Source: Thermoplasmatota archaeon
Lineage (GTDB): Archaea > Thermoplasmatota > E2 > UBA202 > JdFR-43
DNA length: 64,000 nt
Direction: 5' to 3'
Assembly (NCBI GenBank): GCA_029259055.1
Contig: JAPDJP010000016.1
Span: 13,019-77,018 of the forward strand
The notes under the pieces are model-generated. The model saw only the letters and a list, made by a program, of their open reading frames with translations. It was not told where the DNA came from and ran no database searches. The translations under genes were made by a program, and so were the position numbers. Shown one piece after another: positions 1 through 54,306 of this stretch (position 1 is its first letter; every line of letters starts with the position of its first letter).

Positions 1-2430
1 AACGAAGTTTGTGTTTATTGGGTGTTTGGAGTGCCATTGGATATAGAAATTAAAGATTTGGAAACAAAAAAGATAATTGGTAAAAGAAAAATCAATATTT
101 CAACTCTTGTTACATCAAGAATGCCGTTGCTAATGGAAATGGCATATAAATATAAAGAAAGTTTGGAGGGAGAAGGGGCCACAATTCTAATGACATTGTT
201 TAGTGAGTTGTATACAGAAATGAGAGCACTTGCTCAATATGGAGGAATGAAAACAAAGGTACCCAACATCGTTGATAATAGATGGTTGCAATATGTTGCA
301 AACGCTGTTTTATTAATTCAGCAGTTTGCAGTTTTTAATAGCATAGACCCTGTTACCATTATATGCCTCTTTCATAATATGAAAGATTTTGCTGCACAAG
401 GATTCCCAGAGAAAGAAGGAATTAAAGGAGATATAGAAGATATTTATAAAAACCAAGCGGAAGAAGCGCTTGAAATATTTGGAAACATTGATAAATATTC
501 CTTCTTTTCAATAGATGAAGATCCAGCTGTCGTCAATAAAACAAAAGAAAAAGTGAGTAAACCAAAATCAGAAAGAATGAACATAACGAGGTTAGCTGAA
601 GATTTATTATTTAATACAACCTATACTTATTATTATGTAAATAAAAGCGGAGATAAATGGGAAAATAAAACATTTCATGAATTCAGAGGTTATTGTTTTG
701 AAGAAAATGAAAAAAACTGGACATATGTTTCCCCTCCCTATTATATATATAAAAATGAATCAACCGGAGAGACTTTTCAATCACCATCTTATGAAGGAAA
801 ATGTATTATAAGAAATGGAAAATATTATGTCTATATTCCGCCAGATAATCAGTATAAAAGAGAGAAGATAAATAAGCTAAGTGATACTGTTCTGTCCCAG
901 TTGAGTAAAATAATAAATGAAACTTATTATGCAACTTTTGCTACCACCATAAATCGCCAAACTATATCAACATATTGGGAAGAAGGAGATCCAACAAAAG
1001 ATCCTTACTGGAATGAAGAAGAATCAACAACAGACTGGCGGTATATAAATGCTACTAAAGAAACAGAAGTACTTGAAAATGGAGATGTTATTTTACACTT
1101 CCCATATACAGAAACTTGGGTTGTTATATGGCATAAGAAGCACATATTTGTGCATAAGGAAAAAGAACCCGTTGTTGATGAAAATGGAAAAATTATTGGA
1201 TGGAAATGGGTAGTTAAGGAGAGAGAAACATTTATAGAAGTGAAGGAAGAAAGAGTAAAGTTCAAAATTTCAGTAATAACTACTGAAGATGTGATAAAGC
1301 CATTTAATATTACAAACATAACTTTATTTGTAAATAATATTTCCAATACATTTATTGATTACAATCTTCATAACATATCGAAAGATTTTGTTAAAGATTT
1401 CGTCACAAAAATAAGAGATAAAGGATTAAAAAATGAGATAAGTTGGGATATTACTACAAAAGGGAGAGGTATTACAAAAGGTAAAAATAAATATGCTATG
1501 AAATGGTTGTATGGTTTTGAGGGAGAAGTCGCAAAAGCATTAAAAGAAATTTATGAAGAAATTAAAAAAGATAATATTAGCGTAAAAATAACCGAAGAAT
1601 ACCAATATAGAAAGAAAGATTATGATGAAACGATAGAAAATCATATTGAACAACTTAAAAGAAAATTTTTAGAAAAAAAAGATAGATATATTGATAAGGA
1701 GAGATATAAGTTGGGAGATAAATATAAGAGCTGTGGAGCAAGAGTAATTGCAAAAATGAGAGCTTGGTATGTAAATACTTTATGGGAGATGCTTAATGAA
1801 TCAAAAGAGAAATTAAAGAAAAGTGTGGAAGATAATGTTACAAAAGCATTAGAAAAAAGGAATTTAGATAAGAGTTTATTTGAGAAGAGAAAAGAAGCGA
1901 AGGAATTAAATTTAGACATAAGCAATTTGCTACCATCATTACAATTTGGTTTAAATATGCCTCTTAAAAGGAATGAAACAATAGAGGAATGGGCTGGTTT
2001 TTCTATTGACCAAAAGCCAGATTATTTTAATTATAGAGAATCTGAAAAAGATTTATATCGTTTTAAAGTAAAAAATATTTGTTTGTTTGGTCCAACTGGC
2101 TTGCCACTCCTTCCAACACCGATTACTCCTTGGGTTATTACTATCAATGCATGGTATATAGAAGTAGAGGGAGAATATGAAGAATTTGAGATTACAGATA
2201 CAATTGGTGAGATGGTGCCACATGCATTATTTGGAGATGCAGAAACAAGCTTTGTATTGAGAAAGCATTCTATAGAAGATGAAATATGCTCTGGAGAAAC
2301 TATAGGGGATTGTGAACCTCTAGAATTTAAAATAAAAACTGTTAGTGTATGCATAACACCTCCCGGTTTTGTTGGAGATATTGATACTTATAGTTATACA
2401 AAAGAGCCTTTGGGACAAGGAGGAGGATAA
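1..2430 (+). CDS. Large hypothetical protein, 5'-truncated by the window edge (frame open from nt 1); Lys/Glu/Asn-rich with at least 15 N-x-S/T sequons; candidate N-glycosylated surface or structural protein
   Basis: Long ORF on the track (22..2430) whose frame stays open back to nt 1. No recognisable enzymatic motif. The C-terminal third is charged and coiled-coil-like. Sequon density was read directly from the translation. Confidence 0.6.
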   Translation, partial: NEVCVYWVFGVPLDIEIKDLETKKIIGKRKINISTLVTSRMPLLMEMAYKYKESLEGEGATILMTLFSELYTEMRALAQYGGMKTKVPNIVDNRWLQYVANAVLLIQQFAVFNSIDPVTIICLFHNMKDFAAQGFPEKEGIKGDIEDIYKNQAEEALEIFGNIDKYSFFSIDEDPAVVNKTKEKVSKPKSERMNITRLAEDLLFNTTYTYYYVNKSGDKWENKTFHEFRGYCFEENEKNWTYVSPPYYIYKNESTGETFQSPSYEGKCIIRNGKYYVYIPPDNQYKREKINKLSDTVLSQLSKIINETYYATFATTINRQTISTYWEEGDPTKDPYWNEEESTTDWRYINATKETEVLENGDVILHFPYTETWVVIWHKKHIFVHKEKEPVVDENGKIIGWKWVVKERETFIEVKEERVKFKISVITTEDVIKPFNITNITLFVNNISNTFIDYNLHNISKDFVKDFVTKIRDKGLKNEISWDITTKGRGITKGKNKYAMKWLYGFEGEVAKALKEIYEEIKKDNISVKITEEYQYRKKDYDETIENHIEQLKRKFLEKKDRYIDKERYKLGDKYKSCGARVIAKMRAWYVNTLWEMLNESKEKLKKSVEDNVTKALEKRNLDKSLFEKRKEAKELNLDISNLLPSLQFGLNMPLKRNETIEEWAGFSIDQKPDYFNYRESEKDLYRFKVKNICLFGPTGLPLLPTPITPWVITINAWYIEVEGEYEEFEITDTIGEMVPHALFGDAETSFVLRKHSIEDEICSGETIGDCEPLEFKIKTVSVCITPPGFVGDIDTYSYTKEPLGQGGG

Positions 2431-2431
2431 A

Positions 2432-2974
2432 TTGAGGTTTTTTTGGATTATAATTTTAATGTTGTTAAATTTCGGGATGGCAAAAGCTTGGGAATGTGAA
2501 TATGGAGAAGCAAAAGCATGGGTGAAATTATATGGAGAGAAAGAATGGAAAGAAGCAATTGTAAAGGGAATTACATTAAAAGTAAAAGAACCCTTCGAAA
2601 TAAAAATATTTATAAGAACAAAAATAGATTGTTGGGTTGCTTTCGAACTTTATGAGCCAGGAAAAACGAGAGCATATGAAGCAATAAAAGGGGGAGAATT
2701 AGAACGTTTTTATAATACTCAAGATCTGCCAGCAAATTGGACAAATACATACTATTTCAAAGTAAGACCTACTGGAAATTGGACAAGAGGGACGGCGCCC
2801 TTAAATCTTTTTGTCCAATTTACTAAAAGTATGGAGGATTATAAAACTATACATAAAACAGTAATATATGCATATATATCCCCAGAAAAATGGGAGGGGA
2901 AAAAAGAAATACCGGGATTTGAAGCAATATTTATAATTTTGCTTTTATTGTTTTTAGGTTATAAAAATGAATAA
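2432..2974 (+). CDS. Small secreted protein with a PGF-CTERM-like C-terminal sorting signal (putative archaeosortase substrate)
   Basis: In-frame TTG at 2432 lies 5 nt after an AGGAGGA Shine-Dalgarno at 2421-2427, just past the stop of the upstream gene. N-terminal signal-peptide-like RFFWIIILMLLNFGMAKA. C-terminus is IPGF + hydrophobic helix + YKNE. The track ORF 2369..2974 overlaps the upstream gene, so the later start is preferred. Confidence 0.6.
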   Translation: MRFFWIIILMLLNFGMAKAWECEYGEAKAWVKLYGEKEWKEAIVKGITLKVKEPFEIKIFIRTKIDCWVAFELYEPGKTRAYEAIKGGELERFYNTQDLPANWTNTYYFKVRPTGNWTRGTAPLNLFVQFTKSMEDYKTIHKTVIYAYISPEKWEGKKEIPGFEAIFIILLLLFLGYKNE

Positions 2975-3830
2975 AGAAGGAGCAACATTTATTCCTATAC
3001 GCCTGTTAATGAGTATTGTAGTTATAGCTGTCATTTCCATGTTATTATATACAGGAATAAAGAATTGGATGATTATCTCCGCAGAAAATAATGTTCAAGA
3101 ACAAATAGGAGAACTTGTAGCAATGTTTCAAGAAATGATTAGTGGCAGTGCAAGAGATGTTTTGTATGAAAATTTTAAGATACAAAGCGGAGAGGTAAGA
3201 ACATTTACCTTTAATTTACCATCCTCTCTTATATATTTAGGAATAGGTACAGACCCAGATCCAGACAATGATGGTAAATTGGAGAGAGGAATAATGGAAG
3301 ATGGAAAAGTTATTGTATATAGAATTGGGAAAGGAAGCAAAAAATTTTATTGGCTTAATATAAAAATAAGGCTGGGAAAATACGAAGAAGGAAACTGGAT
3401 AATAAAAAAACCCGCAGAAGGCTTAATATTAACTAAAGGAAAATATAAAATATCTTTTGAATTGGTAGAATATCATTATGAAAAATATATACTTATACAT
3501 GCAAATAATTCCGAATCGATACCATATTTAGATACCAACCCTCCAATAATAAATATAAAGGAGCCAAAAAATGGTGAATATCCATATGGAGATATTTGCC
3601 TCAAATGGTTTGTATATGATGAAAAGGGTATAGAATCAATTAAAATTGTTTATAAAAACGAAACAACAGATTGGATTTTATTGGAAGAAAGGCAGGAATG
3701 GGAAAGCTGGGAATATACAATTGAGAAAGAGAAAATGATTGGCAATGAAAAGTATTGGATAAGGGTCATTGCAAAAGATAAAGGAGGCAACACCGCTTAT
3801 GATGAAATTGAAATTTTTCTTAAAATATAG
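2967..3830 (+). CDS. Membrane-anchored extracellular protein (N-terminal TM helix) with a C-terminal Ig-like AxDxxGN domain
   Basis: N-terminal hydrophobic segment LLMSIVVIAVISMLLY. The C-terminal ~70 aa (IRVIAKDKGGNTAYDEIEIF) resemble the C-terminus of 10000..11397 and the N-terminus of 45948..48722. Confidence 0.6.
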   Translation: MNKEGATFIPIRLLMSIVVIAVISMLLYTGIKNWMIISAENNVQEQIGELVAMFQEMISGSARDVLYENFKIQSGEVRTFTFNLPSSLIYLGIGTDPDPDNDGKLERGIMEDGKVIVYRIGKGSKKFYWLNIKIRLGKYEEGNWIIKKPAEGLILTKGKYKISFELVEYHYEKYILIHANNSESIPYLDTNPPIINIKEPKNGEYPYGDICLKWFVYDEKGIESIKIVYKNETTDWILLEERQEWESWEYTIEKEKMIGNEKYWIRVIAKDKGGNTAYDEIEIFLKI

Positions 3831-9778: not shown

Positions 9779-10003
9779 ATGTCACTAATTGAAATTTTGA
9801 ATAAACTCAAATGGCATGAAAAATACGATTTTAATAAAGTTATAATATGGTATATAAATAGACCTGATGGAGTAAATTGCATAAGAGGGGAGCAAATAAA
9901 GAAAATTGGCAAAAAATTTTTAGAAACAGAAGGTAAATACATACCATATCACAGAATAATAAAAATTGAATATGAGGGAGAAATAATTTATAAGAAATCC
10001 TAA
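9779..10003 (+). CDS. Small conserved archaeal hypothetical protein (74 aa)
   Basis: ORF only. Confidence 0.4.
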   Translation: MSLIEILNKLKWHEKYDFNKVIIWYINRPDGVNCIRGEQIKKIGKKFLETEGKYIPYHRIIKIEYEGEIIYKKS

Positions 10004-11397
10004 AGAATCTTTACATATCTTATTTTACTACTTTCTACACTATTTCCAGCTTTATCATATGCTATTACTTTTAATTCATTGAATGAAAATCCTTGTGGGA
10101 GAGGAGCTGTATATGGAGCTACATAATCTTTCCATAGTATTTCATCATTCAATATGAATTCAACATAATCAATACCAGAAATACCATCATTTGCCTCCGC
10201 CTCCACAACAAATTTTCCAATTATTATTGTATTGCCAAATAAACTAGACATTATTTTTCTGTTCGCTATATATATGTATCCTTCCTTGGGAGAAACTATT
10301 TCTAAGGAAGGTATTTCTTTATCAATTCTTATTGTAAAATTCTTCTTTTCTTCAACATTTCCAGTTTTATCTATGCTATAAAAATGTATGGTATGAGAAC
10401 CATTTGTAGAAATACTAAATTCTTTTTCATATTTTTTCCATTCTCCATCATTTATTTTATAAAAAGTAGCATTGACTCCAGACAAGGCATCAGCAGCAAA
10501 TAACTTTATTTTTGCATTACTTACAATCCATCCATTTTTTCCATATTTTGCATTTATTGTATAATTAGTTTTTGGAGGGGTATAATCCATTTTTAAAGTG
10601 AAATTTTTCTCTTTTTCAGCATTACCAGCATTATCCGTGCTATAAAAATATACTTTATTTATTCCTTCGTTGCTCACATTAAAGCTCCCATTATATACAA
10701 TCCATTCTCCATCATTTATTTTATAAAAAGTAGCATTGACTCCAGATAAATTATCCTTTGATGACAAGGTTACCATAACTTCTTTATTATACCATTCCTT
10801 TACCTCTGATAAATTATATGTAGTTTGAGGAGGGGTTACATCTATTAAAACAAAAATAGTATCTTTGGCGGAAGCATTATCATTATCATATACTGTTAAA
10901 TTTACAGTATAAAAGCCTTCATTACTATATGTGTGCGCAATTATACTTCCATAAGATGTTTTTCCATCTCCAAAATCCCATACATATTTTACTATGGAGC
11001 CGTCAACATCATAACTTAAATTTGCATTAAAAATTACAGTATAGTTATTCAGTATTATATTTTCCCCAGCATCTGCAACTGGAGGAACGTTTAGTATTGT
11101 TATATTTTTTTGTATATAATCCATATTTCCATTTGCATCCCATATAACCAGTCTAACTGAATATATTCCATTATCGGGATATTTATAAGTTGGATTTTTT
11201 TCTGTACTGCTATTTCCATCTCCAAAATACCAAATCCAAACTACAATATCTCCGGTGGAATTATCAAAAAATTTTACAAATTCTGTATCTGTTGGTTGAT
11301 ACGGCTCCCAATAAAAATCTGCTTTTAAATCATTGCTGGAATTTATTGGAGGTATAAAACACATGAGTATTCCCAGTAGCAAGATCACCTTCCTCAT
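10000..11397 (-). CDS. Secreted PKD-domain surface protein with tandem Ig-like repeats
   Basis: Signal peptide MRKVILLLGILMCF; two PKD motifs (WYFGDGNSS...NGN and WDFGDGKTS...YDNDNA); two ~88-aa repeats containing FYKINDGEW; C-terminal IKVIAYDKAGN Ig-like motif. Confidence 0.8.
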   Translation of the reverse strand: MRKVILLLGILMCFIPPINSSNDLKADFYWEPYQPTDTEFVKFFDNSTGDIVVWIWYFGDGNSSTEKNPTYKYPDNGIYSVRLVIWDANGNMDYIQKNITILNVPPVADAGENIILNNYTVIFNANLSYDVDGSIVKYVWDFGDGKTSYGSIIAHTYSNEGFYTVNLTVYDNDNASAKDTIFVLIDVTPPQTTYNLSEVKEWYNKEVMVTLSSKDNLSGVNATFYKINDGEWIVYNGSFNVSNEGINKVYFYSTDNAGNAEKEKNFTLKMDYTPPKTNYTINAKYGKNGWIVSNAKIKLFAADALSGVNATFYKINDGEWKKYEKEFSISTNGSHTIHFYSIDKTGNVEEKKNFTIRIDKEIPSLEIVSPKEGYIYIANRKIMSSLFGNTIIIGKFVVEAEANDGISGIDYVEFILNDEILWKDYVAPYTAPLPQGFSFNELKVIAYDKAGNSVESSKIRYVKIL

Positions 11398-45024: not shown

Positions 45025-45947
45025 ATTCCTAATGTTCCTATTGAATTTTAAATTTTTAGTTTGTTATTTGGGGTTAATACAATTAGCCTTTTATATAAAA
45101 GCTAACCATTTTTGGCATAACTCGTTATTAAAAATATCAAAAATGGATATATGGTATCCCTTCCAAAATTTGGAGGGGATATCACGTCATGGGATGAAAT
45201 AGAAATAGAAAAGACAATAAAAAGTAATCGGAATTTTTTGGATAAAGAAATCGGAAGAAAATCTATTTATAGAAGAAATAAATGATGATGAAGGACATTA
45301 TATGGAATATCATTTGAAAAAGCTGAATCGACCGTCCATTGATTACAAACTCAAATTCCTGTATAATAGGCAGGAATATGAAATTGTGGGAGCATATTAC
45401 AGGAATAAAAGAATGAAAGAATAGGAGGAAAATAAAGAAAGGTATATTGGGAAAATGAGAAATATAAATGAAGGATTTAATTCATGTTTAAAACAACATG
45501 CAGGTTTGAATCAAATTTACCAAGAAAAGGAATGAAAATCACGTTCTTCCATACAACTTTAGGTCTTTTTTCGTTAAACATGGTTGCATTAACGAGATTA
45601 CAAAATGGTATAACTGAAAATCTTGTTAGTGTCGCATATTTAACCTAATTTTTCACAATTATAGGTTAAAATTCATGAATTAATTAGAATGGAGAAAAGA
45701 TAATTTATTTTACCTTGCAATTTGATGCAACTTTTTTATTTTAGGATTCAGAAAAATGCAGTTTTTTTATTCAAAATTGTTATTACAATCAGCAATAACA
45801 ACAAAATACAGATTTAAAAACGGTAAATCTGTATCTGCCTAACCAAACTTAACAAAGTTATAAATACAACGTTTGCATAATATATATTGAGAAGAGTTGT
45901 CTTGCGCCAAACAGGGCTTCTTTTCTCAAAATAATGGAGGAGAGTAA

Positions 45948-48722
45948 ATGTGGAAAAAAGGATTATGTTTAGTAGTAGTAATGCTATTTGTTAGCACTGC
46001 TGTTGGAGTTGCAATAAATAAAATGGGTGCTTCAACAGATATTACAGTAGAAAATAATCCAACAACAGCTTTTAGCAATATAGCAATAGAAATAATTAAA
46101 CCAAAAAGCGGCTATCTTTACATTTACGATAAAGAGGTTTTCCCTTTAATTTTTATGACAGTTATTATTGGCTCCGTAACTGTTGAAGCAAATGTAGAAA
46201 GTGATAATGAGATAGATAAGGTAGAATTTTATATTGATAATGAGCTAAATTATGTAGATTATGAAGCATATTATTCATGGGAATGGGTTGAGTCTGCTCA
46301 TTTAAGACACGAAATAAAAGTTATTGCATACGATATTGAAGGAAATACAGCATATGATTCTATATCTGTATATATTTTTAATAAGGGAACCTTGCCTAAG
46401 GAAATAACTAAGGACGATGCTATGGAAATATTAATGGGGAGAATAATAAAGCCAGCCTCTTCAGATGATAGATTATCAGCATTTATGTTGTCTAAACCAT
46501 TACAAAAAGGAGATGTTATTACTGTGGAAAGTGGGGAAAATTATGAAATTAATAAAACAACATGGTTTGTTTTTATAGATGATGATCCGCAAGCTTTTTT
46601 TGCTCATTCTACAAGATTTGTTTTAATAGATGCCAAAACCGCCTCATATAACATTATAAATGAAGTATGGCCACCTACAATAAATAATCTTTCAATGTGG
46701 GATATGGATAACCTTATTGAAATATATTGCGTTTTAAATAGCTCCTTACCTTTATCTGAAAACTATACAGTAGCCCCTTACGGCGATTATGGAGATGCTC
46801 CTGATGGGCAGCTTGCTTATTATGGTATAGATGGAGAATTTCCAACATTATACAATACAAAAAATAGTAAATTCAACCGCACTGGTGCACATGCTCTCCA
46901 TACTGGTTACGAAATTATTGGGAGTACAGTAAGTGTTGAAAGAGGAGCAAATGATATGAACGATGTTGATGGGATTCCAAATTTAGTTGATTCAGACAAA
47001 GATGATAGATTGTTTATAATTCTGGAAAATAAAAATGCAAAAATTGCTTTTTCAGTTTCAGTCAGTGAAAATGCTCCAGATATTACTCGTTATGTGAATG
47101 TGCTAATTGATTTAGATCAAAATGGAAAATGGGAAAAAGGTAGTAACGGTAAGGAGTGGGTAATAATAAATGAGGAAATAAATGTTAGCCCCGGAACAAG
47201 TAAAACAATTATAATACCTTTCAGCTGGGGAAATGTTCTTACTTCTCCAGTATGGATGAGAATTGCATTAACACGGGAAAGAATAAATGAAACACTATTT
47301 GGTGAGGATGGATGGGACGGAAGCGGAGAATTTGAGTATGGAGAAATTGAGGATCATTTAGTTTTTCTAATGGGCAATCCGCCCTTGCCACATTTTGCAG
47401 GCTGGTGGCCTCCTTGGCCTAACAACCCGCCAGGTGGCCAGCCCCCAGGCCCTAATCCTCCAGCACCTCAGCCTCCAGGCGGAGACGACTGTCCATGTGG
47501 AATTACAAAGAACTACTATCAAATTAGAATTAATTGTGGGGACAAAAAGAAGCATATTGCTCAGGGAAAACAAATTGTCAAATCGTCTGTGGATAGAATG
47601 AAAAAACTTTGTGATGATGATCCGCGTTATGTGGATGCTAGCTCTGTTGAACCATTAAAGTCGGGTCAAACTAAAAAAGATTTTATAAATGCGATTCAGA
47701 AATTACTTAATAAATTAAAGGATAAGGTGAAATGTTGTGATGAAATTATAATTTATATTTGTGGTCATGGGCATGAAAAGAGTAAAAATTATCCAAATGG
47801 TGGTATACAGTTGTATAACAATAATGGAGGCAAAATAACTGAAAATGGTAAAGGCGCAGTAATAACAAAAAATGACTTAATGGGAATGATAAAATCAACA
47901 ATTCCTCCATGTACTGAAGAAGGGGGACCTCTTGGAAATTGTGATGAGGAAGGAACATGTTGCCACATTAAAATCATAATAGAATCATGCCATGCGGGCA
48001 ATTTTAAAGGTGCATGTAGTCAAGGAATGACTGTTATAGGTACTTCAGATGATTCTCCTTCGCATGCAAATTGTAGAGGAGGAGTTTATACAAATGGTTT
48101 TATAGATGCAAGGAGGGATAAAAACGCAGATAAAAATGGGGATGGAAAAGTGGATGCTGATGAAGCCGATGAAGCTGCAAAGGATGATGTGGAAAAATTT
48201 AATAAGAAATGTGGCAAAAACCAAAAACCATGGAAGGAATCGCAAGAATGCGATTGTAAATGTCCATGCGAACCCAGTGTAGATGGTGATAAATGGGTTT
48301 GGGATGAAGAATCTGGAGAATGGGTAGATGAAATATATGCATATCTAGGACAACCTATTTGGTTTGCTTGTCAAATTGTAAATGATGGGGAATGCAGAAA
48401 TGTTACAGATATTTTAATGATTGATTGGTTGCCCTATGGTTTACAGTATGGGGATGAGGCAATTTTATACATCAATGGTCAGGAAATGGGTCCCAGAGAA
48501 CCAGATGATATTGTTGAGGGACCAGATTCTCTCAAATTAACATGGAATCTCGATGAAATTGGTGAGATTTCTCCCGAAGAATATGTAACAATAATATTTA
48601 GTGCCATTGTAGAATATCCAGGGGAATTTACGAATTTGTTATATGTATCTGCTCATTGTACTTGTGATCCAAGCATTGTTGTGAGTGATGAGGATGTGGC
48701 AACTGTCAATGCAATAGAATAA
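45948..48722 (+). CDS. Large (924 aa) secreted multidomain protein: N-terminal Ig-like domain, proline-rich linker, legumain-like (clan CD, family C13) His/Cys dyad region, Ca-binding-like loop, Cys-rich segment, C-terminal beta-rich domain
   Basis: Signal peptide MWKKGLCLVVVMLFVSTAVGVA; IKVIAYDIEGNTAYD Ig-like motif; linker PPLPHFAGWWPPWPNNPPGGQPPGPNPPAPQPPGG; IIYICGHGHE ... IIIESCHAGNF resembling the C13 His-Gly / Glu-x-Cys-x-x-Gly catalytic dyad; DKNGDGKVDADE loop. Confidence 0.7.
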   Translation: MWKKGLCLVVVMLFVSTAVGVAINKMGASTDITVENNPTTAFSNIAIEIIKPKSGYLYIYDKEVFPLIFMTVIIGSVTVEANVESDNEIDKVEFYIDNELNYVDYEAYYSWEWVESAHLRHEIKVIAYDIEGNTAYDSISVYIFNKGTLPKEITKDDAMEILMGRIIKPASSDDRLSAFMLSKPLQKGDVITVESGENYEINKTTWFVFIDDDPQAFFAHSTRFVLIDAKTASYNIINEVWPPTINNLSMWDMDNLIEIYCVLNSSLPLSENYTVAPYGDYGDAPDGQLAYYGIDGEFPTLYNTKNSKFNRTGAHALHTGYEIIGSTVSVERGANDMNDVDGIPNLVDSDKDDRLFIILENKNAKIAFSVSVSENAPDITRYVNVLIDLDQNGKWEKGSNGKEWVIINEEINVSPGTSKTIIIPFSWGNVLTSPVWMRIALTRERINETLFGEDGWDGSGEFEYGEIEDHLVFLMGNPPLPHFAGWWPPWPNNPPGGQPPGPNPPAPQPPGGDDCPCGITKNYYQIRINCGDKKKHIAQGKQIVKSSVDRMKKLCDDDPRYVDASSVEPLKSGQTKKDFINAIQKLLNKLKDKVKCCDEIIIYICGHGHEKSKNYPNGGIQLYNNNGGKITENGKGAVITKNDLMGMIKSTIPPCTEEGGPLGNCDEEGTCCHIKIIIESCHAGNFKGACSQGMTVIGTSDDSPSHANCRGGVYTNGFIDARRDKNADKNGDGKVDADEADEAAKDDVEKFNKKCGKNQKPWKESQECDCKCPCEPSVDGDKWVWDEESGEWVDEIYAYLGQPIWFACQIVNDGECRNVTDILMIDWLPYGLQYGDEAILYINGQEMGPREPDDIVEGPDSLKLTWNLDEIGEISPEEYVTIIFSAIVEYPGEFTNLLYVSAHCTCDPSIVVSDEDVATVNAIE

Positions 48723-51778: not shown

Positions 51779-52176
51779 ATGTCAAGAAAAACCGTAAATG
51801 AGATAGCGAAGGAAGTTAGGTTGCCAAGAACAACGGTTGGAGAAAGAATAAAAAAGCTAGTTAAAAAGGGAATAATAAAAAAATTCACCGCCATTCTAAA
51901 TTATGAAAAAATAGAAAACCAATAACAGCTTTTGTTCTAGTTTCGTTTGTTCCTCATCCAAATGTTTCACAACGAGAGCTGGCTAGGGAAATTGCTAGAA
52001 TAGAAAATGTGCATGAGGTTTATATAATATCTGGGGAATGGGATTTATTGTTAAAAGTGAGGGGAAAAGATATGGAGGAGATTGGCCATCTCATATTGGA
52101 TAAATTAAGGAGCATGAAAGGTGTTGGCAAAACAGTTACATGCACGTGCTTTAGTGTAGTGAAGGAGGAAATATGA
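51779..52176 (+). pseudogene. Lrp/AsnC-family transcriptional regulator interrupted by a frameshift in an A-rich tract (~51905-51923)
   Basis: Frame 2 encodes the HTH MSRKTVNEIAKEVRLPRTTVGERIKKLVKKGII..NYEKIENQ-stop. Frame 1 continues with the RAM domain ITAFVLVSFVPHPNVSQRELAREIARIENVHEVYIISGEWDLLLKV... ending at 52176. Confidence 0.6.
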
Positions 52177-52715
52177 TGAAATTAAAAATAACATTAATAT
52201 TGCTTATTTGTGTCTCAGGATGCCTCACATTTGAATGGCAACCTGAATATGAAGTCAAGTATAAAGTATATGTTGTTAACGTTATAGATGGAGATACTTT
52301 TGATGCCATCTTTCCAGATGGAAATGTAGAGAGAGTTAGATTGCTGGGTGTGGATGCGCCAGAAAAAAGTGCAGAAAATAACAAGCCAAATGAATATGAT
52401 GGAATAACAGATTTAGATTGCCTTGCTTATTGGGGAATAAAAGCAAAAAAATTTGCTGAAAAATGGATCGAGGGAAAAGATGTTTATATTGAATTTGATA
52501 CCGCTGCTGGATTTAAAGGATATTATGGAAGATGGCTTTGTTATGTTTATTTGGAAAATGGAACAGATTTTAATGCTGAATTGATAAAGAAAGGATATGC
52601 AAGAGTTTATGTAGAGGGAGAGTTCTCTAAGGAAAACTATTATTTAACTTTGCAACAGGAAGCAATGGAAAGTAGCGTTGGATTATGGAGTTGTATGCCG
52701 ACGATTTTTCAGTAA
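52173..52715 (+). CDS. Thermonuclease (staphylococcal nuclease homologue), lipoprotein-type signal
   Basis: SNase motifs VIDGDTFDA and RVRLLGVDAPE; N-terminal signal with a VSGC lipobox-like Cys. Confidence 0.8.
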   Translation: MMKLKITLILLICVSGCLTFEWQPEYEVKYKVYVVNVIDGDTFDAIFPDGNVERVRLLGVDAPEKSAENNKPNEYDGITDLDCLAYWGIKAKKFAEKWIEGKDVYIEFDTAAGFKGYYGRWLCYVYLENGTDFNAELIKKGYARVYVEGEFSKENYYLTLQQEAMESSVGLWSCMPTIFQ

Positions 52716-53052: not shown

Positions 53053-54306
53053 ATGAAGAAAAAGATAATTTACGTATGCATCTTAATATTAGTCTGTTCA
53101 TTTAATATTACAATTGAAAAAGAAATATCCATTCATAATGGAGGAACATTGTATGTGGGTGGGGATGGTCCAGGAAATTACAGCAAAATACAAGATGCAA
53201 TAAATGATGCGAATGATGGTGATACAATTTTTGTATATAGTGGCGTATATTACGAAAATTTATACATAAATAAGAGCATAAAGTTAATAGGAGAGAATAA
53301 AAATGAAACAATAATAGATGGAAATATTGAAGGAATTGTCATTAATGTTGTTTCTGATAGGGTACTTATTAAAAATTTTAAAATAAGAAATTGGGAAATT
53401 ATAAATGCAACAGGTATTAAAGTTTCTGGAGATGGAGTAGTTATCAAAAATAATATAATAACGGAACCCAATTGGTGGGGAGAGGGATTATTTGTCTTTA
53501 AATCTCAAAATTGTTCTATCATAAAAAATTTATTTCTAAATAGCTGTATAATTTTGGAGAATATAAGTTATAGTACAATAGATAGTAACAGGTTAAGTGG
53601 CGAATATCCATTCTTCTTTATACAACTTAAAAATTCCACAAATAGTGTTATCTCCGGAAATATGGTAAATAATAGTGACGGAGGCGGCGTGATAACAATA
53701 AATTCATCCTCTATCAAAATATATAATAATTCCATTAGTAGCAATAATTATGCAGGCATTAATCTCTGCAGCTCTTCCCATAACATGGTCCAAAATAATT
53801 TGTTAAGAGGGATTGAAAGCGGGCTATCAATATACAATTCAAATAATAATACTATATCAAATAATGCCATTCTTTTTAGTATAATAGGAATTGAATCTTC
53901 AAATTGCTTAAATAATACTATATCAAATAATGTTATCCGTCTTTCTCGAATTGCTATTTATTTCGAAGATGACACAGAATGTAAAATTTTAGAAAATAGC
54001 ATTGTTTTAAATGGTATAGGAATTTTTTTATTTGGTAATGATTTTGGATCCCATGATAATACAATTTTAAATAACAACCTTGTAAATATTATAAATGCCT
54101 GTCTTGAAGGATACTGGGGACCATATCAAAAGAAACCAAAATTTGATAATAAGTGGTTACGTAATTATTGGTGGAATTGGCCTTCTATTTTCCCAAAGCC
54201 AATTTTTGGAGTAATGTCAAGATGGGACGGTATTTTATATCCTTTATTAAACTTTGATTTTCTTCCTCGCTTAATTCCATATAGTTATGGGCCCGCGGAG
54301 ATTTGA
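53053..54306 (+). CDS. Secreted right-handed parallel beta-helix repeat protein (NosD/pectate-lyase-like fold)
   Basis: Signal peptide; many repeats of the I-x-N-N / ISNN pattern typical of PbH1 beta-helix repeats; last 19 nt overlap the tRNA-Ile on the opposite strand. Confidence 0.7.
   Translation: MKKKIIYVCILILVCSFNITIEKEISIHNGGTLYVGGDGPGNYSKIQDAINDANDGDTIFVYSGVYYENLYINKSIKLIGENKNETIIDGNIEGIVINVVSDRVLIKNFKIRNWEIINATGIKVSGDGVVIKNNIITEPNWWGEGLFVFKSQNCSIIKNLFLNSCIILENISYSTIDSNRLSGEYPFFFIQLKNSTNSVISGNMVNNSDGGGVITINSSSIKIYNNSISSNNYAGINLCSSSHNMVQNNLLRGIESGLSIYNSNNNTISNNAILFSIIGIESSNCLNNTISNNVIRLSRIAIYFEDDTECKILENSIVLNGIGIFLFGNDFGSHDNTILNNNLVNIINACLEGYWGPYQKKPKFDNKWLRNYWWNWPSIFPKPIFGVMSRWDGILYPLLNFDFLPRLIPYSYGPAEI

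Follow-up and report, generated by a model that had tools for sequence, protein, structure and literature searches.

The locus and the protein it encodes

We analyzed a 64,000-nucleotide (nt) stretch from a Thermoplasmatota archaeon (assembly GCA_029259055.1, contig JAPDJP010000016.1), hereafter the window, and in it a single gene that encodes a multi-domain protein of 924 amino acids (aa) with a predicted cysteine peptidase domain. The first-pass annotation of this DNA had read the product as a secreted relative of the C13 peptidases legumain and GPI8. The 924-aa open reading frame (ORF) and all motifs quoted from it were found at the coordinates that had been given, and the two motifs of the catalytic dyad are conserved beyond chance (120 of 120 homologues). 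An identical copy of the protein, which carries no name, is present in a public protein collection. Conservation counts given below refer to an alignment of 120 sequences, Pfam counts to 37 homologues, and scans of the isolated peptidase domain to 17 sequences.

From the N-terminus to the C-terminus, the protein consists of a signal peptide, a Big_7 immunoglobulin (Ig)-like domain, an alpha/beta domain that we call N-dom, a module of ~200 aa running from DYGDAP to GEVED, a Pro-rich linker, the clan CD peptidase domain, a CxCxCPC stretch and an isopeptide domain. The gene and its catalytic part comprise the following features:

45948..48722, + strand: whole gene, 924 aa plus stop codon (ORF list, ATG start)
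47490..48245, + strand: clan CD cysteine peptidase domain, aa 515–766 (domain model, Foldseek, family profile)
47766..47768, + strand: codon of His607, in CGHG at the end of strand b3 (invariance, alignment to metacaspase-4 GHG)
47988..47990, + strand: codon of Cys681, in ESCHAG at the end of strand b4 (invariance, alignment to metacaspase-4 DSCHSG)

A clan CD fold with an intact His/Cys dyad

A family profile and structure prediction were needed to place the peptidase domain, because single-sequence searches gave no clan CD match. Specifically, the query alone has no clan CD match above threshold in Pfam or NCBIfam and none in a single-sequence search of the PDB, and its best clan CD match is a faint one to NCBIfam caspase_w_EACC1 (E = 0.26). 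The first-pass annotation had named the lack of a match to any clan CD family as a result that would overturn its reading; that lack holds only for the single sequence, since both the structure model and the family profile give matches.

The full-length model (predicted template-modeling score (pTM) 0.75; predicted local distance difference test score (pLDDT) >85 over most of aa 150–924) suggests that aa 150–924 pack as one body. Since a Foldseek search with this model was swamped by Ig and pilin matches, with MALT1 at rank 50, we predicted the structure of aa 512–782 alone using AlphaFold (pLDDT 93.6, pTM 0.91). The topology of the domain model is b1-a1-b2-a2-b3-(small strands)-a3-b4-b5-a4-a5-b6, with strands b1 at aa 523–529, b2 at 561–567, b3 at 599–605, b4 at 674–679, b5 at 694–698 and b6 at 762–766. 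In clan CD peptidases, five helices flank a central sheet whose strands are ordered 2-1-3-4-5-6, and the six-strand, five-helix layout defines caspases, paracaspases and legumain (PMC4357240). The predicted structure shows these six strands and five helices of the caspase-hemoglobinase fold, with His607 right after b3 and Cys681 right after b4.

Foldseek comparison of the domain model with the PDB returned caspase-11 (E = 1.6e-7), legumain (E = 1.2e-6, TM 0.51), caspase-7, MALT1 and the bacterial protein GSU0716, all with E-values of 1e-7 to 1e-6, TM scores of ~0.5 and probability 1.00. The placement in clan CD is supported because the fold model and Foldseek match caspases, legumain, MALT1 and the bacterial homologue about equally.

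The dyad motifs are IIYICGHGHE (aa 601–610, nt 47748–47777) and IIIESCHAGNF (aa 676–686, nt 47973–48005). His607 and Cys681 are invariant in 120/120 homologues, as are Cys596, Cys655, Cys665 and Cys672; Gly608 is kept in 119 and Glu679 in 114. The His-Gly and Cys positions are also intact in all 20 inspected relatives from other phyla at ~30% identity; the position of Glu679 is occupied in distant relatives by E, D, I, Q, A, T or G. Each dyad residue is preceded by hydrophobic residues, as in other clan CD peptidases (IIYICG-H607-G and IKIIIES-C681). His607 and Cys681 are 74 residues apart and are separated by a Cys-rich insert (CP..C....CC). Taken with the fold model and the Foldseek matches, this invariance bears out the His/Cys dyad of the first-pass annotation, and at the level of the predicted structure aa 515–766 are supported as a genuine peptidase domain of clan CD whose dyad is intact.

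The domain lies between families C14 and C13

The assignment to C13, in contrast, does not hold. The query has no match to PF01650 (C13) even at E ≤ 10 and none to PF00656 (C14), and it reaches the gathering score of neither family. On the isolated domains, C13 was matched by 5/17 (best E = 2.6e-5, 24.3 bits against a cut-off of 22.8), with the matches confined to the His-to-Cys core (profile positions 107–192 of 258). C14 was matched by 4/17 (best E = 3.3e-5), and C11 by one (E = 0.044). In a separate scan of ten domains, a single C14 match was obtained at 20.9 bits against a cut-off of 21.4, covering profile positions 46–224 of 233. C13 and C14 are thus equally weak in the isolated domains of the relatives. 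PF00656 also matches 5/37 full-length relatives (best E = 8.9e-7), and C25 gave no significant sequence match.

Searched against the PDB, the domain profile matches only Arabidopsis metacaspase-4 (chain 6w8s, E = 1.1e-4), which provides profile homology to C14. In this alignment GHG falls on GHG and ESC on the DSC of DSCHSG; chain 6w8r, which has Ala at the Cys position, scores lower. A second weak stretch of metacaspase-4 similarity aligns the segment between strand 5 and the EF-hand-like loop with the p10-like part. Furthermore, the proteins that the family profile ranks closest outside the family are prokaryotic; most of them match PF00656, and they often match both families, with C14 (up to 67 bits) more strongly matched than C13 (up to 35 bits).

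The likeness to C14, the family of caspases, paracaspases and metacaspases/orthocaspases, includes the order of His-Gly and then Cys with a hydrophobic strand before each, the six-strand, five-helix topology of caspases and paracaspases, and a profile alignment that takes in the dyad and the segment after Cys. The domain differs from C14 in that the query scores below PF00656, in its 74-residue spacing and Cys-rich insert, in its secretion within a multi-domain protein that carries GEVED and pilin-like modules, and in an EF-hand-type loop between a4 and a5. The eight-stranded sheet of metacaspases is absent here.

With C13 (legumain, GPI8/PIGK) the domain shares the motif E-S-C-x-A-G, compared with E-A-C-E-S-G in legumain, a six-stranded fold of the monomer type and the Foldseek match to legumain. 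It differs from legumain in lacking the C-terminal helical prodomain, in whose place stands a beta-rich pilin-type Ig domain, and in losing the Glu two before Cys in distant relatives. In legumain, S1 and catalytic accessory residues follow b1, namely Asn42, Arg44 and His45. The positions that may correspond to Arg44 and His45 vary within the family, with K, S, R or D at 535 and H or D at 536; after b1 only Gly531 and Asp532 are fixed. The context of the GPI-transamidase complex, in which GPI8 acts, is missing here, and no partner genes are conserved at the homologue loci compared. In sequence space, then, the domain lies between C14 and C13 and is not a demonstrable member of C13.

The EF-hand-type loop, the cysteines and the C-terminal isopeptide domain

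The second half of the peptidase domain and the part that follows it contain three further features:

48129..48164, + strand: EF-hand-type loop of 12 residues, DKNGDGKVDADE, aa 728–739, between helices a4 and a5 (fits all canonical positions)
48249..48269, + strand: CxCxCPC stretch (CDCKCPC), aa 768–774, joining the peptidase to the C-terminal domain (conservation)
48279..48719, + strand: C-terminal pilin-type Ig domain of the DUF11/RrgB-D2 kind, aa 778–924 (profiles, Foldseek, triad)

The loop fits the pattern D-x-[DNS]-x-[DNS]-G-x-[ILV]-x-x-x-E and is flanked by helices (aa 713–727 and 737–755 in the model). Its ligand positions are strongly conserved, with Asp1 in 117 homologues, Asp or Asn at position 5 in 108, Gly6 in 99, Val8 in 116 and Glu12 in 118, and position 3 is D, N, S or T. 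The loop persists in distant relatives; its match to Pfam EF-hand_1 is below threshold (E = 0.012–0.059). The calcium-binding-like loop seen at first pass is therefore a real conserved feature, for which the conserved ligand positions predict Ca2+ binding.

The CDCKCPC stretch, also present as described before, is nearly fixed in the family. Cys768, Cys770 and Cys772 each occur in at least 118/120 homologues and Cys774 in 108, and the protein has about ten conserved non-catalytic cysteines altogether. We approached disulfide pairing through the co-occurrence of cysteines across homologues. Cys774 (48267–48269) and Cys816 (48393–48395) co-vary, with both present in 106 homologues, neither in 12 and two discordant (phi 0.92), which suggests a predicted inter-domain disulfide between the linker and the C-terminal Ig domain.

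The C-terminus is beta-rich in the model, as anticipated. TIGR04226 matches 18/37 homologues and TIGR01451 16/37, and the query itself matches TIGR01451 below the cut-off (E = 0.0011). Foldseek matched this domain to the pilins PilA, BcpA, RrgB-like proteins and SspB. Domains of this isopeptide type have a first-strand Lys, a last-strand Asn and a catalytic Asp or Glu. The triad is present, with Lys782 in 119/120, Asn896 in 116/120 and Asp826 in 118/120, making Lys782-Asn896 a candidate intramolecular isopeptide bond with Asp826 as its putative catalytic acid. The domain thus shares with the isopeptide domains of Gram-positive pilins and DUF11 proteins (RrgB D2, BcpA, Streptococcus sanguinis PilA) the two TIGR profiles, the pilin structures and the Lys/Asn/Asp triad. 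Unlike those pilins, it is present once, as part of a protease, with no LPXTG/sortase signal and no pilin motif.

The N-terminal half

Five features precede the peptidase domain:

45948..46019, + strand: Sec-type signal peptide or signal anchor, aa 1–24 (MWKK, then a 19-residue hydrophobic stretch; helix at aa 2–23 in the model)
46170..46376, + strand: Big_7 Ig-like domain, aa 75–143 (Pfam PF17957, PDB matches)
46395..46742, + strand: family-specific alpha/beta N-dom, aa 150–265 (in the model, one helix, then six or seven strands)
46782..47363, + strand: extended GEVED module, aa 279–472 (an invariant acidic half, then a beta-sandwich half ending in YGEIED)
47373..47486, + strand: Pro/Trp-rich linker, aa 476–513 (read from the translation)

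The prediction of a secreted protein is borne out by the N-terminal export signal, and a lipobox-like motif occurs at the signal position in 75/115 complete homologues; on these two grounds the family appears to be exported and usually lipid-anchored. The Ig-like domain proposed for the N-terminus is also there: Big_7 matches aa 75–121 (E = 6.9e-9, 36.7 bits against a cut-off of 24.1), and the region matches Ig-like modules of PDB 3pdd (E = 2e-7) and 3pe9 (E = 2e-6). It is not conserved across the family (5/37 homologues), and pLDDT is low there.

N-dom is well modeled (pLDDT 88–97), and neither a PDB profile search nor Pfam gave a significant match to it. A PepSY identity, suggested by eye only, was not confirmed, with a Pfam PepSY match in 1/15 members (E = 0.33). 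N-dom and the clan CD domain are still found together in relatives at ~30% identity.

The GEVED module is larger than the Pfam family after which it is named. PF20009 matches aa 382–472 (E = 1e-8, 36.3 bits against a cut-off of 24.4), establishing membership, and is found in 34/37 homologues, but the Pfam model spans only the C-terminal half of the ~200-aa module. The other, acidic half, GDYGDAPDG ... DGIPNLVDSDKDD, follows the pattern DYGDAPD ... PNLVD.D.D. An alignment of the module has 59 invariant columns, and this acidic N-terminal half is the most conserved part of the protein and also the worst modeled (pLDDT 47–64). The whole module occurs without the peptidase domain in Planctomycetota, Bipolaricaulota, Nitrososphaerota and others, and a search of the PDB with its extended profile gave only chance-level matches to subtilisins. 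GEVED was introduced as a domain found in the stalks of fibrillar adhesins (PMC10952558). The linker that follows, recognized as Pro-rich at first pass, has several Pro and Gly positions that are at least 90% conserved.

Distribution of the family

Searching 5.8 billion proteins, we obtained 248 matches, and those listed align over aa ~150–924 at 38–52% identity. Among GTDB species representatives, the full-length architecture is found mainly in metagenome-assembled genomes (MAGs) of Dehalococcoidia and of Thermoplasmatales/Thermoplasmatota. Relatives at 30–38% identity come from Altiarchaeales, Acidobacteriota, Thermodesulfobacteriota, Myxococcota, Lentisphaerae, Verrucomicrobia, Ignavibacteriales and unclassified archaea, and N-dom, the peptidase domain and the extended GEVED module can all still be recognized in these distant relatives. 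Among 1.84 billion cluster representatives, the peptidase-domain profile picked out 42 clusters at E ≤ 1e-30; relaxing the limit to 1e-10 raised this number to 84, and to 1e-3, to 1020. The family is small, with a long tail of remote relatives, and is shared by sediment-dwelling Dehalococcoidia, Thermoplasmatota and a few further uncultured lineages. Members from Dehalococcoidia and Thermoplasmatota are 40–50% identical across the bacterial and archaeal domains, an identity that points to gene exchange of what may be a useful exoenzyme. A scan of IMG/VR found no viral relatives.

The closest homologue (47% identity, with the same Big_7 N-terminus) lies on a 231-kb scaffold (ENA ERZ23498673), with an amino-acid permease gene directly upstream. 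Its surroundings contain dozens of small same-strand ORFs without a Pfam match, an HNH_3 protein and, downstream, a 1443-aa unannotated protein; the scaffold looks like a virus or an extrachromosomal element. In one Thermoplasmatales MAG, an OPT oligopeptide transporter is encoded two genes upstream of the homologue. No neighboring gene is common to the eight contexts compared (this window and seven homologue loci, archaeal and Dehalococcoidia).

Public names of family members are 'hypothetical', 'PKD domain-containing' and 'isopeptide-forming domain-containing fimbrial protein' (NCBI MBE9505379.1), and the peptidase domain is annotated in none of the members listed.

Genomic context in the window

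The window carries archaeal markers, namely aIF2-gamma, L7Ae, the archaeosine tRNA-guanine transglycosylase (TGT) and RNA 3'-phosphate cyclase. The aIF2-gamma encoded here shares 91% identity with the protein from Thermoplasmatales archaeon ex4484_30, and the named relatives are all Thermoplasmatota. The GC content at third codon positions (GC3) of the protease gene is 0.223, within the range of its neighbors (0.20–0.25); on this composition we rejected a recent horizontal acquisition by this genome. The higher overall GC of the gene reflects the Gly/Pro/Asp/Cys-rich amino-acid content of its product.

The ORF is flanked by housekeeping genes (a winged-helix regulator, coaBC, pantoate kinase, archaeosine TGT, L7Ae and Ndk). 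The winged-helix regulator is transcribed divergently from the protease gene across a non-coding gap of 923 bp (45025–45947), which has 28% GC and is unusually long for such a compact genome. The gap contains no convincing ORF (the longest is at most 74 aa) and no Rfam match, and short frame fragments in it might be decayed coding sequence.

Secreted-protein genes are scattered through the window. The ORF at 2369–2974 (+) encodes a sarcinarray/MAST family protein (TIGR04209, E = 3e-19) whose C-terminus, ...EIPGFEAIFIILLLLFLGYKNE, is a PGF-CTERM-type tail, marking it as an archaeosortase-type (ArtA-type) substrate. Two secreted proteins, at 2967–3830 (+) and 10000–11397 (-), end in a Big_7-like Ig module that resembles the N-terminal one of the protease; the latter protein further has a PKD domain and three OmpL47-type barrel domains (NF047446, E = 1.6e-49). 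Downstream of the protease gene lie genes for a secreted thermonuclease/EcnA-like Ca2+-activated nuclease with a lipoprotein-like N-terminus (52173–52715, +) and a secreted NosD-like parallel beta-helix protein (53053–54306, +). The first-pass annotation had placed the protease in a surface-protein neighborhood. This is not a real linkage, because the only PGF-CTERM-type protein of the window, that of ORF 2369–2974, is encoded 43 kb from the protease gene.

A proposed role in extracellular protein degradation

We propose that the protein is probably a secreted, surface-attached clan CD cysteine endopeptidase for extracellular nutritional proteolysis. Export is argued for by the signal sequence, the lipobox-like motifs and the fact that all accessory domains (Big_7, GEVED, PKD, DUF11/isopeptide) are of extracellular types. 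The enzyme would be exported by Sec and held at the membrane by a signal anchor here and by a lipid anchor in most relatives. Outside the cell, it would be stabilized by Ca2+, disulfides and the isopeptide bond, and would cleave environmental proteins and peptides, the products being taken up for fermentation. The Ig, GEVED and pilin-like modules would serve as stalk, binding or stabilizing elements, and N-dom may be a chaperone or an inhibitory prodomain. The acidic residues Asp532, Glu679 and Asp/Asn702 are near the predicted S1 loops, which suggests a basic residue or Asn at P1.

In two of the eight contexts the gene lies beside or near a gene for an uptake system, which would suit this role, and the lack of any other conserved gene partner fits a stand-alone digestive enzyme. 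Putative secreted peptidases of families C11, C25, C10 and C13 are on record for Thermoplasmatota from sediments (PMC6461988), and the nutritional role is suggested by its agreement with the proposal made there for secreted C11, C25 and C13-like peptidases. In view of the same report, an extracellular archaeal clan CD peptidase is not the unusual case that the first-pass annotation had taken it to be.

The protein resembles gingipains (C25) and clostripain (C11) in its likely mode of work, not in family membership. Like them, it is predicted to be exported and surface-associated, with an N-terminal non-catalytic region, a clan CD domain with an Ig-like domain directly behind it, and adhesin-type modules; it shares with them a probable stabilization by Ca2+ and a predicted nutritional role in peptide-fermenting anaerobes (PMC6461988). 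It differs in its accessory domains and in the absence of the C-terminal domain of the type IX secretion system (T9SS). The sheets of C11 and C25 are extended (PMC4357240), in contrast to the minimal six-strand type seen here.

Several points weigh against a nutritional endopeptidase. Genes for transporters adjoin the protease gene in only two of the eight contexts, and this window is not one of them. Activity is a prediction from sequence for every member of the family, the geometry of His607 and Cys681 is derived only from the model topology and the Foldseek superposition, and substrate, specificity and activation mechanism are proposals. Moreover, the most conserved segment of the protein (aa 279–352) lies outside the peptidase domain and is poorly modeled, and the main activity of the protein may therefore depend on more than the peptidase domain.

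Alternative explanations

The strength of conservation in the DYGDAP region, which is not catalytic, is one reason to ask whether the protein is mainly an adhesin or stalk whose clan CD domain acts in cis, by autoprocessing or ectodomain release, in the manner of the MARTX and TcdB cysteine protease domains or of gingipain-adhesin maturation. GEVED, Big_7, PKD and DUF11 are typical of fibrillar adhesins (PMC10952558), and the full-length model is compact (pTM as given above). We nevertheless regard this as unlikely, since it is N-dom, GEVED and the clan CD domain that are kept as a unit across phyla, whereas Big_7, PKD and NosD come and go; we found neither a repeat stalk nor a conserved cleavage motif, and each domain is present in a single copy, in contrast to the long repeat arrays of adhesins. 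The first-pass annotation suggested a surface-protein-processing protease. In such a role the clan CD domain would cleave a sorting signal and ligate surface proteins or pilin-like subunits, as an analogue of sortase in archaea and in the monoderm Dehalococcoidia. Clan CD does include transpeptidases or ligases of this kind (GPI8, plant legumain ligases and the T9SS enzyme PorU), the motif E-x-C-x-[AS]-G resembles the EACESG of legumain, the protein carries a pilin-type isopeptide domain, and one ArtA-type PGF-CTERM protein is encoded in the window. Yet no substrate or partner gene is conserved beside the gene in the eight contexts, and Glu679 of the motif is lost in distant relatives. Intramolecular isopeptide domains form spontaneously and are common stabilizing modules, and PGF-CTERM proteins, such as the one encoded 43 kb away, are processed by archaeosortase A. 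The processing role hence finds no support in the comparisons made here and appears improbable, somewhat more so than action in cis. Its strongest form, in which N-dom, DYGDAP/GEVED and the clan CD domain would make up a new Ca2+-dependent family of extracellular transpeptidases, analogues of sortase or PorU that would covalently attach or polymerize surface proteins in Dehalococcoidia and Thermoplasmatota, with the invariant acidic DYGDAP segment docking the substrate or the envelope, is less probable still.

An equally long shot is an antagonistic or defensive exoprotease that degrades the S-layers or pili of competitors or viral particles. The patchy distribution across bacteria and archaea, with 40–50% identity between Dehalococcoidia and Thermoplasmatota members, and the virus- or element-like gene content of the contig that carries the closest homologue would suit such a role; the seven homologue loci, however, contain no immunity gene or toxin-type partner, the scan of IMG/VR found no relatives, and the GC3 of the gene matches its host. 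Pseudo-orthocaspases exist in bacteria (PMC6426788), and a catalytically dead pseudo-protease acting as a binding scaffold would have precedent there, but the retention of His607 and Cys681 throughout the alignment and in all 20 distant relatives essentially excludes it. An extracellular endopeptidase for nutritional proteolysis is thus the reading that we prefer.

Implications for clan CD and for subsurface protein degradation

Secreted prokaryotic caspase homologues are already known (PMC3501461), and the present findings extend known biology rather than introduce a new principle. What is new is an unannotated clan CD family with the fixed architecture of N-dom, DYGDAP/GEVED, peptidase and isopeptide domain, the insertion of an EF-hand-type loop into the fold of the peptidase, and a distribution over bacterial and archaeal subsurface lineages. 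Clan CD thereby gains a compact architecture that lies between C13 and C14 in sequence and would be stabilized by disulfides, Ca2+ and an isopeptide bond. If its specificity proves to be legumain-like or ligase-like, the family would also be of biotechnological interest.

When protein degradation in anoxic sediments is surveyed, extracellular peptidases are counted by MEROPS and Pfam assignment. Such surveys would miss this family, because the public names of its members omit the intact clan CD peptidase domain, and the family is present in two abundant subsurface groups, Dehalococcoidia and Thermoplasmatota.

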